Source: Escherichia phage inny. From it: a DNA stretch of 64,000 bases. Within the stretch, counting starts at the first letter, position 1; each line of letters begins with the position of its first letter. The notes under the pieces are model-generated. The model was not told where the DNA came from and made no database searches. It saw nothing but the letters and a program-made list of their open reading frames with translations. A program made the translations under genes and the position numbers. The stretch lies in the sequence record MN850601.1; one strand, 5' to 3'. This document shows positions 3,375-15,752 of the stretch, in pieces.

Positions 3375-3698
3375 ATGCAAAAAATAAACACTGGTTCTCG
3401 TCCTAAACAGAAGCAAACAAAAGCAAGGGTATCTTATGTTGACAACTCTTGTTATAATTTCAAAAATGTTAAAGAAGTTATCATTGATGAAAAAGAAGGT
3501 TTGATTCACATTTCATCTGAACGTTTGAAAGGTAGTGTTACTCTTCGTGAGAATGTATCTATACCTATGAAAGTTGTGGCTACACTCTGTGTTGATAAAC
3601 CAGATGTTGTTAACTACTATGTGTTCCGTGATAGTTGTATTTCATTACATAATAAGATTTTTAAATCTTCGCACGTTAAAACAAAACACATTGTATAA
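3375..3698 (+). CDS. hypothetical protein (107 aa)
   Basis: ORF track; RBS AAGGAAAA; followed by intrinsic terminator. Confidence 0.5.
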   Translation: MQKINTGSRPKQKQTKARVSYVDNSCYNFKNVKEVIIDEKEGLIHISSERLKGSVTLRENVSIPMKVVATLCVDKPDVVNYYVFRDSCISLHNKIFKSSHVKTKHIV

Positions 3699-3704
3699 CA
3701 CATA

Positions 3705-3727
3705 AACCCGCTTCGGCGGGTTTTCTT
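3705..3727 (+). terminator. rho-independent terminator
   Basis: hairpin CCCGC-TTCG-GCGGG followed by TTTTCTTG. Confidence 0.7.
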
Positions 3728-3772
3728 GTATGTGTGTTTTTATTTGTCTTAGCATAAACAATAGGAGGTATT

Positions 3773-3994
3773 ATGTCTGTAGTTGTAGAAGGTAGTATTG
3801 GTTTCTTAGTAGATAACCCTCACCCTTTCGTGGTTAAGGTTCATATTCAAGAAAAGGTAAGCAACAATACGTGGTTGTGCTTGTTAGATAGTAAGATACA
3901 CTCTTATACAGAGGTTTATCTTCACACTTGGCAAATTGGTACGATAACAGCAGAGGATGAATTGATAATTGAACTATATGAACGAGATCTGTAG
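3773..3994 (+). CDS. hypothetical protein (73 aa)
   Basis: ORF track; AGGAGG RBS upstream. Confidence 0.45.
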   Translation: MSVVVEGSIGFLVDNPHPFVVKVHIQEKVSNNTWLCLLDSKIHSYTEVYLHTWQIGTITAEDELIIELYERDL

Positions 3995-4072
3995 ATGACT
4001 TTATTAGAGAGTATCGTAGTGTTAATCATCTTTATCATTGTTGTCATAGGATATTTTACAGAAGACTAAAAT

Positions 4073-4106
4073 AAAGCCCCTAGAATCGCTTCTAGGGGCT
4101 TTTGTT
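4073..4106 (+). terminator. rho-independent terminator closing the + strand early block
   Basis: perfect hairpin GCCCCTAGAA-TCGC-TTCTAGGGGC followed by TTTTGTTTG. Confidence 0.7.
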
Positions 4107-4169
4107 TGCATTAGATAGGGAAACGTATTACTAAAATAAAAAGTGCGTTAGAATGCGTTACAGGAGGTT

Positions 4170-4427
4170 TTAAGAATGCATAAAATCTTCTTCAGGGCAG
4201 GTTGAGAGATAAGAGATGCACGTTGGGACAACAACAACATTATCTTTAAGGTTTGCAACCAAGCCTTTTGTGATTCCAGCCACTGCCCCGTTAATATCTG
4301 CTTGACGGATACCAAAACCTTGTTGTGCGGATAGATAACAAAATCCCTCACCTTTCTGTTGATTATTATTGAAGTAATAAACGTAGTGCATCATAAAATG
4401 GTCTTTAACGATTTGTTCTGTGGTCAT
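4170..4427 (-). CDS. hypothetical protein (85 aa)
   Basis: ORF track; AGGAGA RBS upstream on - strand. Confidence 0.45.
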   Translation of the reverse strand: MTTEQIVKDHFMMHYVYYFNNNQQKGEGFCYLSAQQGFGIRQADINGAVAGITKGLVANLKDNVVVVPTCISYLSTCPEEDFMHS

Positions 4428-4435
4428 AATATTCT

Positions 4436-4461
4436 CCTATAAGAAAAGGGGCTTTCGCCCC
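4436..4461 (-). terminator. rho-independent terminator (hairpin AGGGGCTTTCGCCCCT, copy 1 of 3)
   Basis: GC hairpin followed on - strand by TTTTCTTAT; identical hairpin recurs near 15733 and 28821. Confidence 0.6.
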
Positions 4462-4470
4462 TTGGTCAAG

Positions 4471-5283
4471 TTACTTAGTCAAATGATCTTCTATCATTTT
4501 TATGAAAGCAGGATTGCTAAAAGCATCTGCTGCCTTTTCTCTGTAAACAAAGACTCCTCTATCTTCGTAAAGAAGAGTTTCTTCGTAATTAATTCCTGGG
4601 TTAACAACAATCATTTTTGTACCCATATTAAGTGCAGGGAATAATTCCCAATTAAAATTGATAACTTGGTTTGAACATCCTACTACAACAACCAAATCTT
4701 GCATGGTCAAAGTATCAAACAAGTGAGCCATATCTGCATACAAAGGTGCAGCCTCACCAAAAAATACAACATTAGGCTTCACCCAGTTATAATCATCTAT
4801 GTTTATACTATTGTAACCAATATCTACCAGTGTTTTGTAATCTCCAGGATGCATACGGTAAACTACTTCAGGAAGATACCCGTGCACGTGAATAACAGAA
4901 TCCCTGTCCACACCTGCTCGCTCTAGTAGATCATCAACGTTTGTTGTCAAGTTTACTACTTGGTTAGGATATTCCTTAAACCACTTTGCTATTTGAATAT
5001 GTGCAGCATTAGGTTGTACATCTTTAAGCTCAACACGTCTTTTGTTATAAAATTCGTGTGTTTTGGCATACAAGTCCATACCGTTCTCGTCTACACCACC
5101 GACCACTGGAAGATCTGGAGATGTTCTCACACGATAACCTGCTTGGAAAGCTCCAATATCGCAGACCTCTTCTAAGTCATATTCTTCCCATAAGGCACGA
5201 CCACTATCTGTGTCTGTTCGGAACGTTCGAATCCCACTGTCTGCACTTAAACCTGCGCCACTAACAAAAATTACTCTTCGCAT
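4471..5283 (-). CDS. Sir2-family NAD-dependent protein (deacylase/ADP-ribosyltransferase-like)
   Basis: GAGLSADSGIRTFR (Sir2 GAGxS...GIPxFR), TTNVDDLLERAG (TQNxD), HVHG catalytic His, VVFFGE; only two Cys so no zinc ribbon. Confidence 0.75.
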   Translation of the reverse strand: MRRVIFVSGAGLSADSGIRTFRTDTDSGRALWEEYDLEEVCDIGAFQAGYRVRTSPDLPVVGGVDENGMDLYAKTHEFYNKRRVELKDVQPNAAHIQIAKWFKEYPNQVVNLTTNVDDLLERAGVDRDSVIHVHGYLPEVVYRMHPGDYKTLVDIGYNSINIDDYNWVKPNVVFFGEAAPLYADMAHLFDTLTMQDLVVVVGCSNQVINFNWELFPALNMGTKMIVVNPGINYEETLLYEDRGVFVYREKAADAFSNPAFIKMIEDHLTK

Positions 5284-12819: not shown

Positions 12820-13321
12820 AATAGAAAGGTTGAGTTAAACCCAGCCTGTTTTTTGGGTCGTAGACGTACCAAGCATATGCTGTCTTATCAGTACCACCTG
12901 CAACAAAAGATGGTCGTTCAGAAAGAACAATCAAATTTGTTGGTGGATTCTGTTTATGGAATTCCCTTCGTTTAATAGACTCTAGGAAACCAAGACGCAA
13001 CAAGTATATGCAAACGTCTGCTTCTTTTAAGCTCTTTTGCAAGAACTCAAGTGCAAGTTTGAATGGGGGATTTGTGATTATAATATCCGGCTTAGTATGC
13101 CATTCATGGTTAAAATAATCTTTCCCTTCTTCTAACTCACAATATTCTGATCCTTCTGGAAAATGTTGATAAATTGCAGCAGCAGCGCCTTTACACGGTT
13201 CTGCAAAAATAAAACCTTCTTCTTTAAGGTTATTAAAATCTATTACACTAAATAATGCATTTATACATTTTTGTGGAGTAGGATAGTAATCAGTTGGTGG
13301 ACGATCATACTTATTTGCCAC
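12812..13321 (-). CDS. DNA N6-adenine methyltransferase (Dam-like, NPPF motif)
   Basis: DYYPTPQ near N-terminus and catalytic NPPF (motif IV [DN]PP[YF]). Confidence 0.6.
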   Translation of the reverse strand: MANKYDRPPTDYYPTPQKCINALFSVIDFNNLKEEGFIFAEPCKGAAAAIYQHFPEGSEYCELEEGKDYFNHEWHTKPDIIITNPPFKLALEFLQKSLKEADVCIYLLRLGFLESIKRREFHKQNPPTNLIVLSERPSFVAGGTDKTAYAWYVYDPKNRLGLTQPFYFV

Positions 13322-13739
13322 TACTTAAAATCTCCTCTTTTGTGATTTCAGGGTCTTCTTCAAAAACCATAATATCTCTTAAGAACGTTAATTCTTCCAT
13401 AGATACTGGTATTGTATCTTCTTCTGTTTTTCGTTTACATAAATCGTCAAGAAAGTTTTTAAAGTTTTCTGACAAATCGTAAAATTTCAACAGTTGATAA
13501 TCACAGGAGGAGATCCTATCTAGTTCTAACATTCTTTCTAAGATATTTTCTGTGTTGCCATACAGCACACGAACTTCTCCGAAAGGGTTGACTGAATATT
13601 GTGAAGTTCTGAACCATCCCTTTTTAGATACAGTGTAACGCTGTTCTGCTAAACTTTCAATAAAATTTTTAGCTCTTTTACAGTTTTGTTCTAAAGAGTA
13701 GTAGGCTTTTTCTACAAAGGTTACAGGTACTGGTAACAT
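13311..13739 (-). CDS. hypothetical protein (142 aa)
   Basis: ORF track. Confidence 0.45.
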   Translation of the reverse strand: MLPVPVTFVEKAYYSLEQNCKRAKNFIESLAEQRYTVSKKGWFRTSQYSVNPFGEVRVLYGNTENILERMLELDRISSCDYQLLKFYDLSENFKNFLDDLCKRKTEEDTIPVSMEELTFLRDIMVFEEDPEITKEEILSSGK

Positions 13740-13747
13740 ATCTCCTC

Positions 13748-13772
13748 CTAATAAACCCCCTTGAGGGGGTTT
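13748..13772 (-). terminator. rho-independent terminator
   Basis: hairpin AAACCCCC-TTGA-GGGGGTTT followed on - strand by TTTATTAG. Confidence 0.55.
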
Positions 13773-13780
13773 GTGTTAGA

Positions 13781-14434
13781 TTAATTATCAGAGGATACTT
13801 TATCAAGTTTTTCAGAGACTGTCAATACTTTTTCTTGTGATTCTTTCATTTCTGCTAAAATACTTTCAGCTTCATCACTATCAGGATCACCAGTCAACAG
13901 CATACTAATTAGTTGCTCCTTGCTGAAGTTCAGAATATCTTCCGCTGTTAGTTCCAGTTGTTCTTCGATCTCTTCAATAAAAGTTTCACCACCGGAAAAA
14001 GCATCTCGTAGTTTTGCAACTTCCATCGCTTCTTCTGGAGTTGCCCCTGCATCTAAAGCTGCTAAAGCAAAATCTGCCCCACTACCAACAGCATAATAAT
14101 CTTCAGTTAAAGGATATGCTCGCGTTGGATTATTACCCTCGTGCATATAAATTTTACCGTCTGGGTGAACAACCAATGCCACAAACTCTTCATCTTCTTT
14201 ATCAGGATCTGACTGGATCACCAAACCTGGGATTGTCTCTTGTGCTGCTTGGCATTGTAAGTTTTGTTCGAACCAAGAAAAGAAAGTCAGGATAGAAGAC
14301 AGACGTCCTGCACCACCAACAAGGTAATCCCCAATTTTACGCACTTTCTTGAAATTTAAAGTGTCTACACGACTACCTACTGTTACTTTACCATCAGATA
14401 GAATTTTGTTATGTGTTGCAATAATTGTTGTCAT
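13781..14434 (-). CDS. HslV-like (proteasome beta/ClpQ family) Ntn-hydrolase peptidase with acidic C-terminal extension
   Basis: MTTIIATHNK (Thr right after Met, as HslV TTIV), KKVRKIGD, GGAG, AVGSGADFALAA (HslV AIGSGG); about 60 aa acidic tail. Confidence 0.65.
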   Translation of the reverse strand: MTTIIATHNKILSDGKVTVGSRVDTLNFKKVRKIGDYLVGGAGRLSSILTFFSWFEQNLQCQAAQETIPGLVIQSDPDKEDEEFVALVVHPDGKIYMHEGNNPTRAYPLTEDYYAVGSGADFALAALDAGATPEEAMEVAKLRDAFSGGETFIEEIEEQLELTAEDILNFSKEQLISMLLTGDPDSDEAESILAEMKESQEKVLTVSEKLDKVSSDN

Positions 14435-14925
14435 TGTACTTCCTCCTGTAGTGTTTTAAGGACTGCTTTACCACCGCTTACATATTTACGGAGGTAATCA
14501 ATAGCTCTTAGTGTTTCTTTATCCACAAGAATTTTATTAGTTCTTGTCAATGGATGATTGAGTAAGTCACTGCAATTTCTTACTAACATAGATTTCTTGT
14601 GAAAGATACTGCTAAGAAAAAGAAGTTTAGAATCTTCTTCATCAATCAGGAGTAATTCTGAATTAGACCCAGCTACATTTATTATACACTCAAACAAGCC
14701 TTCTTGACTATCAGATAATTCCTGGTAATATTTAGTTAGCCAATCCTCTCCTTTTAACCAACTAAAAAACATCTGAACTTTTTGCAAAGTTGTCATGTTC
14801 TCTAAACGAAGAGATATTTCTTTTTCAATCTTGTCAATATAAATCTGTCTAAACTCATTCGGCTTAACTAAGCCAGCTTGATAGCATTCATCAATACCAT
14901 TGCGATCAATCTCAATTAGCGTCAT
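14431..14925 (-). CDS. hypothetical protein (164 aa), translationally coupled to HslV-like gene
   Basis: ORF track; 4-nt overlap with downstream HslV-like gene. Confidence 0.45.
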   Translation of the reverse strand: MTLIEIDRNGIDECYQAGLVKPNEFRQIYIDKIEKEISLRLENMTTLQKVQMFFSWLKGEDWLTKYYQELSDSQEGLFECIINVAGSNSELLLIDEEDSKLLFLSSIFHKKSMLVRNCSDLLNHPLTRTNKILVDKETLRAIDYLRKYVSGGKAVLKTLQEEVQ

Positions 14926-14961: not shown

Positions 14962-15714
14962 TTAATATACTTCCGTGATGAACTGAGACAAACGGGAACG
15001 TTGGTTATCAGCAGTTGTCATTTCAACATAACCAATAAAATCTACAATAGCTTCCCTTTCTCCTTCTTCGTTAATAGGAACAACACGATCTAACAAATCA
15101 CCTAACCCGTTAGCTCTTCGTTTAATTGCATATGTTTGATTAACATCGCCCATAATGACAATACGTGTATTAAGACCTGCTCGCTCAAGGAGAAGTTTTA
15201 CTGTATTTGGTGACATAAGTTGAACTTCATCAATAAGAATAATGCTGTTATCCCACGTAGCACCTAGTGCATAGTTTGGAATATTAAGTTCAATTTTGCC
15301 ACTTGCAATATCGTTTTCCAATTTATTTGCAGTCATAAACTGTTGGAAAATTCTCTTAGTTGATTCGTAGTGTGCTGCTAGTTTATCAGTCTTATCTCCA
15401 GATAAGAAACCAATTTGATCATCACCTACTTCTGTCGGGTTTTTAAGGAAAATCAACTTTCTGAAATCACCAGCTTTAAGCATTTGCAATGCTTTCCACA
15501 GTGCTGTTGTCGTTTTTCCTGTTCCTGCTGGGGCATTAACAATGGTTAAATCATTCCAAACCATGCTTCTTACAATAGCTTCTTGATTCCCAACAGGGGT
15601 AAATTCATCAAGACGGTAATCATCATTTCCTACTGCTTTAGCCGCATAACGACTGGCACGTTTGTCATCATTGGCTGCTGATTGACGACGAGCCTTTGCG
15701 GTTTTATTTCCCAT
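14962..15714 (-). CDS. phoH: PhoH-like ATPase
   Basis: Walker A NAPAGTGKTT; overall PhoH-family pattern. Confidence 0.85.
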   Translation of the reverse strand: MGNKTAKARRQSAANDDKRASRYAAKAVGNDDYRLDEFTPVGNQEAIVRSMVWNDLTIVNAPAGTGKTTTALWKALQMLKAGDFRKLIFLKNPTEVGDDQIGFLSGDKTDKLAAHYESTKRIFQQFMTANKLENDIASGKIELNIPNYALGATWDNSIILIDEVQLMSPNTVKLLLERAGLNTRIVIMGDVNQTYAIKRRANGLGDLLDRVVPINEEGEREAIVDFIGYVEMTTADNQRSRLSQFITEVY

Positions 15715-15725
15715 GTTTGCACTCC

Positions 15726-15748
15726 TTATAAAAGGGGCTTTCGCCCCT
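15726..15748 (-). terminator. rho-independent terminator (AGGGGCTTTCGCCCCT, copy 2 of 3)
   Basis: GC hairpin followed on - strand by TTTTATA. Confidence 0.6.
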
Positions 15749-15752
15749 TTGT

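Follow-up and report, generated by a model that had tools for sequence, protein, structure and literature searches.

HslV rings are hexameric and ClpP rings usually heptameric. Anbu, a proteasome homologue, is encoded with ATP-grasp and transglutaminase operon partners. In phages, an HslV encoded without HslU has been noted in an annotation remark on the Salmonella jumbo phage pSal-SNUABM-04 (ORF1/ORF116; PMC7823757), and phage ClpP and ClpS have been read as means to exploit the host Clp system (Iyer et al, 2021; PMC7824862). Here we analyse a gene of the phi92-like coliphage Escherichia phage inny, contained in a 64,000-nt stretch of sequence record MN850601.1 (the window), whose 217-amino acid (aa) product is the homologue of phi92 gp058 and is called gp058 below. 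A first-pass annotation, made from the sequence alone, had read it as an HslV-like peptidase without HslU, coupled to an unknown upstream gene. We find that gp058 has the sequence and predicted fold of an HslV-type N-terminal-threonine peptidase, and that genes of this type share their place, close to a gene for a PhoH-like ATPase and downstream of a small phage-specific gene, with non-homologous ClpP-like peptidases. The explanation we favour, with a probability of roughly 0.7, is that gp058 is a proteolytic chamber, that its tail and its neighbour gp059, and not a docking surface on the core, set what reaches the chamber, and that it turns over particular host or early phage proteins.

Results

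Gp058 is predicted to be an N-terminal-threonine peptidase of the HslV fold

The locus contains the following features.

13781..14434, minus strand: gp058 homologue, predicted HslV-type N-terminal-threonine peptidase, 217 aa (open reading frame (ORF), PHROG 1040, PF00227, AlphaFold2, Foldseek)
13970..14434, minus strand: predicted peptidase core, residues 1-155, with Thr2, D14, K30, G43 and G117-S118-G119 (alignments, AlphaFold2)
13781..13969, minus strand: acidic C-terminal extension, residues 156-217, plus stop codon (net charge, motif conservation)
13886-13957, minus strand: helix motif L..FSKEQLI..LLTG within the extension, residues ~160-183 (kept among homologues)
14431..14925, minus strand: gp059 homologue, predicted all-helical, 164 aa (ORF; ATGA overlap with the peptidase gene)
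14962..15714, minus strand: PhoH-like P-loop ATPase, first gene of a three-gene block (Pfam PhoH, E 1.4e-35; PDB 3b85, E 1.6e-14)

The 217-aa frame begins ATG-ACA-ACA (MTTII), preceded at 7 nt by AGGAGG; further upstream the frame has no other start codon. It contains FKKVRKI at residues 28-34 and AVGSGAD at residues 115-121, and its ATG overlaps the TGA stop of the 164-aa gene as ATGA. The reading frames, the MTTII start, the KKVRK and AVGSGA motifs, the acidic extension of some 60 residues (62 in fact) and the 4-nt overlap are all as the first-pass annotation had described them.

Profile searches assigned the protein to PHROG 1040, 'peptidase HslV family' (E 9e-62), and it passed the Pfam Proteasome model (PF00227) marginally, at 25.0 bits against a gathering score of 22.4. 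Solved HslV structures in the PDB were matched at E 9e-8 by the single sequence and at 2e-12 by a 41-sequence family profile; with this profile 20S beta5 came second (~1e-6), and neither Anbu nor BPH was among the top 60 PDB matches. An AlphaFold2 model built on 41 homologues had a mean predicted local distance difference test score (pLDDT) of 84.3, with core residues mostly at 85-98. When this model was compared with the PDB using Foldseek, the best match was HslV 6kui (E 2e-10; template modelling (TM) score 0.66 on target), followed by 20S beta subunits and BPH (5ovs, E 4e-9). There were 938 matches at E<=1e-3, the best 50 of which were all HslV, 20S beta or BPH with TM ~0.65 on target. The proteasome beta-fold, proposed earlier as the feature to check, is thus borne out by the model.

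The catalytic residues tell the same story. T2, D14, K30, G43 and G117-S118-G119 were invariant in alignments of 21 and 41 sequences that include E. coli HslV; T2, D14, K30 and the GSG triplet align with T1, D17, K33 and G123-S124-G125 of HslV, and G43 aligns with HslV G48, next to the catalytic Gly45 position. Every full-length family member across 37 divergent groups of viral contigs starts with MTT or MT[CV], which points to selection for an N-terminal nucleophile that has no propeptide and is uncovered when Met is removed. The invariant catalytic columns and this conserved start agree with the earlier suggestion that the threonine would be exposed once Met is removed. On sequence and modelled structure together, the 217-aa protein is confirmed as a proteasome/HslV-fold N-terminal-threonine peptidase with intact active-site residues, and its predicted likeness to HslV is far beyond chance.

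The bare identification is of little weight, because the gene has been so labelled for years. The RefSeq record of phi92 names gp058 'peptidase HslV family; putative 20S proteasome' and dozens of GenBank records use similar names, so that the assignment goes back to the phi92 genome record. Nor do the counts support the supposition that such peptidases are rare in phages: relatives of gp058 were found in 166 GenBank phage records and in the 37 divergent contig groups, and the non-homologous ClpP-like peptidase has relatives in 1639 phage records (tblastn), probably including ClpP-type head-maturation proteases. The inny protein itself is 99-100% identical to those of phi92 and Escherichia phage arall, and the region is 99.8% identical to arall and 98.7% to phi92 (Justusliebigvirus, Stephanstirmvirinae).

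Two side observations concern the family. The region is also ~99% identical between phi92-like coliphages and records MG065645, MG065656 and MG065689 ('Campylobacter phage A145, C3, A110a'); judged by this identity, their Campylobacter jejuni label looks like host mislabelling or database contamination. Aeromonas phage 2L372D (MK804893; L004 in our numbering of loci) carries tandem HslV-like genes, at 3432-3983 (183 aa, MTCIIALRD...GDKLGS) and 4001-4885 (294 aa), whose products both cluster with the family. Such a pair could form a hetero-oligomeric ring, as in two-subunit proteasomes.

HslV-like and ClpP-like cores occupy the same cassette

We use the term cassette, defined here and not taken from a curated family, for a non-structural region in which a peptidase gene and a PhoH gene lie on one strand, 0-5 genes apart. 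The window holds one: PhoH, gp059 and the peptidase follow one another on the minus strand at the coordinates given above. An HslV-like gene next to gp059 was also found in phAPEC8, FBKp34 and loci L018, L020, L023, L024, L070, L071, L072/73 and L076/77, and in L074 the two genes are present with two small ORFs inserted. The order PhoH-gp059-HslV persists down to 41% identity of the HslV-like protein.

The most divergent members of the gp059 family, P0123 and P0124 (PHROG 14834, E ~1e-13), lie in two unrelated contigs, L067 and L069, in which the order is PhoH-gp059-ClpP. The peptidases concerned score 43.8 and 33.9 bits against PF00574 (gathering score 20.2), have PHROG 1827 'ATP-dependent protease' as their best PHROG (E 4e-53 and 5e-50), and match E. 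coli ClpP in the alignment at the catalytic Ser and His. At neither locus did the +/-4 kb read contain an HslV-like ORF. Gene order and homology here indicate an in-place, non-homologous displacement of one self-compartmentalising peptidase by another beside the same partner gene.

The association with PhoH is wider than that with gp059. In most of the lineages sampled, a PhoH gene is found within 0-5 genes of the orphan peptidase; the ClpP contexts in the sample came from 10 lineages, picked without regard to PhoH. The arrangements are as follows.

FV3 (rV5-like): PhoH - 103 aa - ClpP
KpS11: PhoH - three genes - ClpP
ICP1: PhoH - 210 aa - 60 aa - ClpP, with DNA ligase a few genes downstream
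Vibrio 1.170.O: PIN-PhoH fusion - 59 aa - ClpP
phiPsa300: PhoH overlapping ClpP
Barba15S: PhoH adjoining ClpP directly
Vibrio S4-7: PhoH - 371 aa - 62 aa - HslV-like - DNA ligase, resembling the ICP1 arrangement
L053: PhoH adjoining the HslV-like gene directly, in a rearranged context
L025: PhoH two genes from the HslV-like gene
Aeromonas 2L372D: PhoH five genes from the HslV-like gene

The Vibrio phages provide a second small gene that is shared by both core types. Homologous ORFs of ~60 aa stand directly upstream of the peptidase in four of them, two with ClpP-like cores (ICP1 gp210 and 1.170.O_141) and two with HslV-like cores (1.121.O_172 and S4-7). They lie at L080 2794-2976, L083 2334-2513, L005 3837-4004 and L003 3798-3986 and share the motif ...LG...I.EL.D.EL...V, which resembles the first tail motif of the peptidases. 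Taken together, these comparisons of gene order and homology show that HslV-like and ClpP-like cores are interchangeable in the cassette.

Long forms of both peptidases carry a homologous C-terminal module

The tail of gp058 (residues 156-217) is 62 aa long, with a net charge of -12 and a pI of 4.05; relatives with C-terminal extensions of 140 aa or more also occur. The motif L..FSKEQLI..LLTG is kept in all long and short HslV-like homologues and is found in ClpP-like tails as well. Thus the tail of the ICP1 ClpP-like protein gp211 contains LDKETLIRLITGE, and in the window protein FSKEQLISMLLTGD stands equally far from the core. The most direct comparison is that between the HslV-like protein of S4-7 (residues 158-291) and the ClpP-like protein P0133 (residues 195-312), which are 40% identical over 134 aa (E 5e-17), with cores that fall in Pfam Proteasome and CLP_protease, respectively.

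Searching all phages with the ICP1 ClpP tail as a single tblastn query recovered only ICP1-like phages, a method too insensitive for this purpose, and profiles were therefore needed. A ClpP-tail profile matched nine HslV-like tails at 23-90 bits, compared with 12.2 for the best of ~7400 decoys and shuffles. In the reciprocal search an HslV-tail profile gave ICP1 ClpP 27.5 bits, whereas no shuffled tail scored above 11.2. The profile evidence that long HslV-like and ClpP-like forms carry a homologous C-terminal module is solid.

For the window protein itself the ClpP-tail profile gave a borderline 12.9 bits (E 0.07); the best of its own 2000 shuffles reached 10.4 and the best decoy 12.2. Its place in the shared module follows mainly from alignment with the long HslV-like forms. 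In that alignment, the short form keeps only the first segment of the module, that is the acidic linker and the predicted SKEQLI..LLTG helix, and then runs into an acidic tail. A Pfam scan of the long tails found no family over the module and no match to a SAP-, HeH- or Rho_N-like domain; the resemblance to such domains that the tails suggest to the eye was set aside, being without Pfam support.

Gp059-family genes adjoin a chambered peptidase in the contexts examined

The AlphaFold model of gp059 is all-helical (pLDDT 94.6), and no informative structural relative of it was found; the sequence had no match in Pfam, NCBIfam or PADLOC. In an exhaustive HMMER search of 1.84 billion representative proteins the family comprised 13 members of 55-182 aa, none fused to another domain. 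Homologues of gp059 were counted in 133 phage records and HslV-like proteins of at least 60% identity in equally many, and a gp059-family gene stood between PhoH and a chambered-peptidase gene in every context examined. No similarity was detected that would reveal remote gp059 homologues in Vequintavirinae (FV3_113, KpS11_152).

It is this constant neighbourhood that supports the proposed coupling of the peptidase to its upstream gene, and the overlap first offered in its support does not. Around 27 of ~66 same-strand junctions in this arm of the genome overlap (~40%), seven of them by exactly 4 nt (hand count from the phi92 table), and the ATGA overlap alone is weak evidence because overlaps are so frequent there. 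As a further observation on gp059, Cys14 and Cys118 are invariant and Cys80 is nearly so across the gp059 family, in the motifs ECYQ.GLVKPNEFRQI and LVRDCSD; in the two members next to ClpP the CSD motif reads LGD. The pattern of conservation suggests that the cysteines may form a metal-binding or redox site.

Part of the HslU-docking surface is predicted to be altered

As the first-pass annotation reported, no HslU gene adjoins gp058, and tblastn with E. coli HslU (E<=10) against the window and the remaining 86 kb of the 99.8%-identical arall genome gave only a 15-residue chance match. The observation can thus be strengthened, to none in a whole genome equivalent. HslU-like genes are present in Erwinia and Salmonella jumbo phages and are not a phi92-like feature.

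A peptidase without its own unfoldase might borrow one from the host. According to this explanation gp058 rings would dock on host HslU, and ClpP-like forms on host ClpX or ClpA, with the C-terminal module and gp059 acting as adaptors that redirect the motor to substrates chosen by the phage. HslV is indeed the closest solved relative of gp058, the phage lacks an HslU of its own, and the hosts of phages with HslV-like genes are gamma-proteobacteria, all of which, as far as we know, have HslVU. The idea is also in keeping with a published interpretation in which phage ClpP and ClpS act as tools on host Clp (PMC7824862). If it were correct, the pocket that receives the HslU tail, formed in HslV by F54 and F57 of helix H1, Ala79 and Lys80 of helix H2, and Q114 (PMC6429459), might be expected in gp058. 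The hydrophobic H1 positions do have aligned counterparts, L49 for F54 and a conserved F52 for F57. However, residues 68-84, which align with helix H2 and so with the source of Ala79/Lys80, are predicted to form a non-helical, proline-containing loop with a nearly invariant D81-E82-x-F84 (AlphaFold2 model and alignments). Likewise, the position of HslV Lys28, presumably the anchor for the HslU C-terminal carboxylate, is variable in the phage family (T/Q/D/S). The protein fell far short of both NCBIfam HslV equivalog cut-offs (TIGR03692, 33.3 bits against 137; NF003964, 31.1 bits against 157.75), and by this measure gp058 is not an HslV equivalog. Finally, each exchange of a ClpP for an HslV core would require a new host motor and yet leave the same tail and gp059 in service, which is less economical than a mechanism that is independent of the core. 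We consider docking on host unfoldases unlikely.

Phage-encoded AAA proteins were also considered. Two classic AAA paralogues lie outside the window, 36-53 kb away, at 62965-64092 (plus strand) and 45786-46946 (minus strand) of the arall record MN850584 (arall_89 and arall_56, the latter assigned from tblastn coordinates). They match PF00004 at 38.9 bits and PHROG 2376 and are 47% identical to each other over 254 aa. The family occurs in 379 phage records, many from Gram-positive myophages, and its Gram-positive phage genera are absent among the HslV-like matches listed by organism. These proteins were set aside as improbable partners, since the broader phage range of the family and the distance of the genes argue against a specific link to the peptidase.

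PhoH as a possible motor

The gene directly upstream of the gp059-gp058 pair encodes the PhoH-like P-loop ATPase, which the first-pass annotation did not mention. Two similar terminator-like hairpins enclose exactly the genes for PhoH, gp059 and gp058.

13750..13772, minus strand: terminator-like hairpin AAACCCCC-TCAA-GGGGGTTT followed by ATT, 8 nt past the peptidase stop (sequence reading and scan)
15725..15750, minus strand: terminator-like hairpin AAAGGGGC-GAAA-GCCCCTTT followed by TTAT, between the lysozyme stop and the PhoH start (scan)

This bracketing is weak evidence, because the scan total did not exceed that of shuffled sequence (4 found, 2.2 expected). In Klebsiella phage FBKp34 a promoter is annotated at the place equivalent to the upstream hairpin. 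Beyond the downstream hairpin lies a 142-aa gene (13311-13739, minus strand; phi92 gp057, PHROG 15078) that is present only in closer relatives; in FBKp34, L023 and L024 it is absent, and a Ser/Thr phosphatase gene follows the peptidase directly or past one ORF of ~71 aa.

The arrangement raises the possibility that PhoH, a hexameric non-AAA+ ATPase of the superfamily 1 (SF1)/RecA type, serves as a motor or targeting ring tethered through the C-terminal module, gp059 or both, into which an HslV- or ClpP-type chamber could be plugged. The PhoH domain is believed to assemble as a hexamer around a central pore, through which, in PhoH2, RNA would pass to a ring of PIN nuclease (PMC7390352). This architecture is analogous to that of a motor on a degradation chamber. 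A tether of this kind would explain how unrelated six-fold and seven-fold cores could serve one partner. PhoH is, moreover, the most constant neighbour of both core types, in at least 10 virus genera or lineages; it directly adjoins or overlaps ClpP in phiPsa300 and Barba15S and adjoins the HslV-like gene in the rearranged L053, and in the window the hairpins enclose just these three genes. Against this, every described partner of a chambered peptidase is, to our knowledge, an AAA+ protein, and many phages have PhoH without any such peptidase. T5-like phages have a ClpP-like gene with no PhoH nearby, and proximity may reflect co-regulation or inherited synteny. PhoH proteins have, furthermore, been characterised as SF1-related RNA helicases and not as protein unfoldases (PMC7824862). 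Coupling to PhoH as a motor is, in our estimation, decidedly unlikely.

The peptidase gene lies far from the head module

Capsid maturation had been suggested as one role for the peptidase. ClpP-fold proteins are common head-maturation proteases (PHROG matches), and some very distant homologues of 138-190 aa that begin MTT... lie a few kb from a 460-499-aa gene, judged portal-like by size and sequence only. The gp058 gene, however, is 37 kb from the head module and on the opposite strand, in a long nucleotide-metabolism and auxiliary arm with genes for ribonucleotide reductase, thioredoxin, lysozyme, PhoH, a methyltransferase and a phosphatase. The head module (47999-54877, plus strand) comprises terminase (47999-50083), portal (50181-51749) and major head protein (53876-54877), and the slot between the last two is already filled.

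51834-52325, plus strand: candidate prohead protease, 163 aa, between portal and major head protein (phrog_3017, E 1e-12)

From its matches to head-maturation-protease families, the product of this gene is probably the real prohead protease. Its best PHROG carries the label 'DNA methyltransferase' (phrog_1530, E 2e-49), which looks misleading. The cryo-electron microscopy (cryo-EM) paper on phi92 does not mention gp058. In ICP1 the block gp176-gp211, which includes the ClpP-like counterpart, reaches its peak at 12 min, whereas the capsid protease is encoded separately, by gp125 (PMC7567579). By analogy, the inny peptidase would be expressed as a middle, non-structural gene. That gp058 is a prohead or other virion-assembly protease is most improbable.

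The distant short forms deserve a separate remark. In the IMG/VR loci L025, L037, L041, L047, L052 and L061, homologues of 138-193 aa with an N-terminal nucleophile (Ntn) and an MTT... start stand near a conserved protein of 460-499 aa, and these forms may have a different, possibly structural, role.

Discussion

The results suggest a model in which the phage supplies its own catalytically competent, propeptide-free chambered peptidase from a middle-expressed nucleotide-metabolism arm and not from the virion module, as the last gene of a conserved cassette that consists of a PhoH-like ATPase, a small phage-specific protein (here gp059) and the peptidase. Removal of Met would expose Thr1 as the nucleophile, helped by D14 and K30, and the subunits would assemble into a ring-shaped chamber like that of HslV. 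The C-terminal module and gp059, presumably in contact with the peptidase, would then decide what the chamber encounters, be it a substrate, a location or a motor, and an HslU-docking surface on the core would not. As a result, particular proteins of the host or of the early phage programme would be degraded in the cytoplasm during infection, whether or not an ATPase is used. Host takeover and counter-defence, the other roles first proposed, are both possible; a PADLOC search gave no defence or anti-defence match for gp057, gp058 or gp059.

Several points weigh against this model. That gp058 forms rings and is active is an assumption from homology; HslV by itself has only weak activity, and some homologues of the proteasome, Anbu among them, are not known to show protease activity. 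No functional work on a phage HslV-like orphan was found in the searchable literature. The similarity of the window protein's own tail to ClpP-like tails is borderline at the sequence level. The sample of ClpP lineages is small and non-random, no PhoH gene lies near the ClpP-like gene of a T5-like phage or near the peptidase of Vibrio 1.121.O, and a further lineage, Pseudomonas phage PsCh (Pakpunavirus), was not counted, its 118-aa 'PhoH-like' protein having no match to the PhoH profile. Lastly, cassette phages may share ancient ancestry, and part of the proximity of PhoH and peptidase may be inherited synteny, not functional coupling.

Nevertheless, HslV- and ClpP-type peptidases share the slot, the C-terminal module and the small partner genes in many large virulent phages, and this comparison argues strongly for a proteolytic function in infection that is common to both and under selection. 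The searchable literature contains no description of the cassette, of the ClpP/HslV core swap, of the association with gp059 or of the shared tail, and the papers on phi92 cryo-EM, rV5 proteomics and BME3 report nothing functional on the gene. What appears to be new is therefore the placing of gp059 between PhoH and a chambered peptidase, the core swap, the PhoH proximity and the shared tail module. Carriers of the cassette include well-studied, therapy-relevant phages (phi92/phAPEC8-like, rV5-like and ICP1). Furthermore, phoH is among the commonest auxiliary genes of phages and is used as a marker, its role in infection being unexplained, and the cassette offers a way in. If PhoH did prove to be the motor, this would give phage phoH a function linked to proteolysis, perhaps the removal of host proteins bound to RNA or DNA, and would amount to a new kind of energy-dependent degradation machine.

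How, then, does gp058 compare with known systems? HslV (ClpQ, MEROPS T1B) is the closest by sequence and fold. The two have similar core sizes and a Thr directly after Met with no propeptide, and gp058 keeps the equivalents of Thr1, Asp17, Lys33 and Ser124. Unlike HslV, gp058 is a phage protein paired with gp059 and PhoH; it has no cognate HslU, a predicted restructuring of the helix-H2 pocket region and a 62-aa acidic extension, and with only ~21-26% identity it falls below the equivalog cut-offs. BPH and Anbu likewise combine a proteasome-beta fold with the lack of a dedicated AAA+ partner, and BPH is among the structural matches. They are, however, bacterial and not viral, lay outside the top 60 profile matches, and have operon partners that are absent beside gp058. 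The jumbo phage pSal-SNUABM-04 shares the feature of an HslV without HslU, but it belongs to a different phage group and was treated in a one-paragraph remark without analysis of cassette, tail or partner.

The most instructive comparison is with the orphan ClpP-like 'ATP-dependent protease' of phages (PHROG 1827; ICP1 gp211, rV5/FV3 ORF114). This is a serine peptidase of the ClpP/crotonase fold, in contrast to the predicted Ntn threonine peptidase gp058, and the two cores are without sequence similarity. Nonetheless, both occupy the slot downstream of PhoH in what appears to be a non-structural, middle-gene context, both have a gp059-family or ~60-aa upstream partner in some lineages, and the long forms of both carry a homologous C-terminal module.

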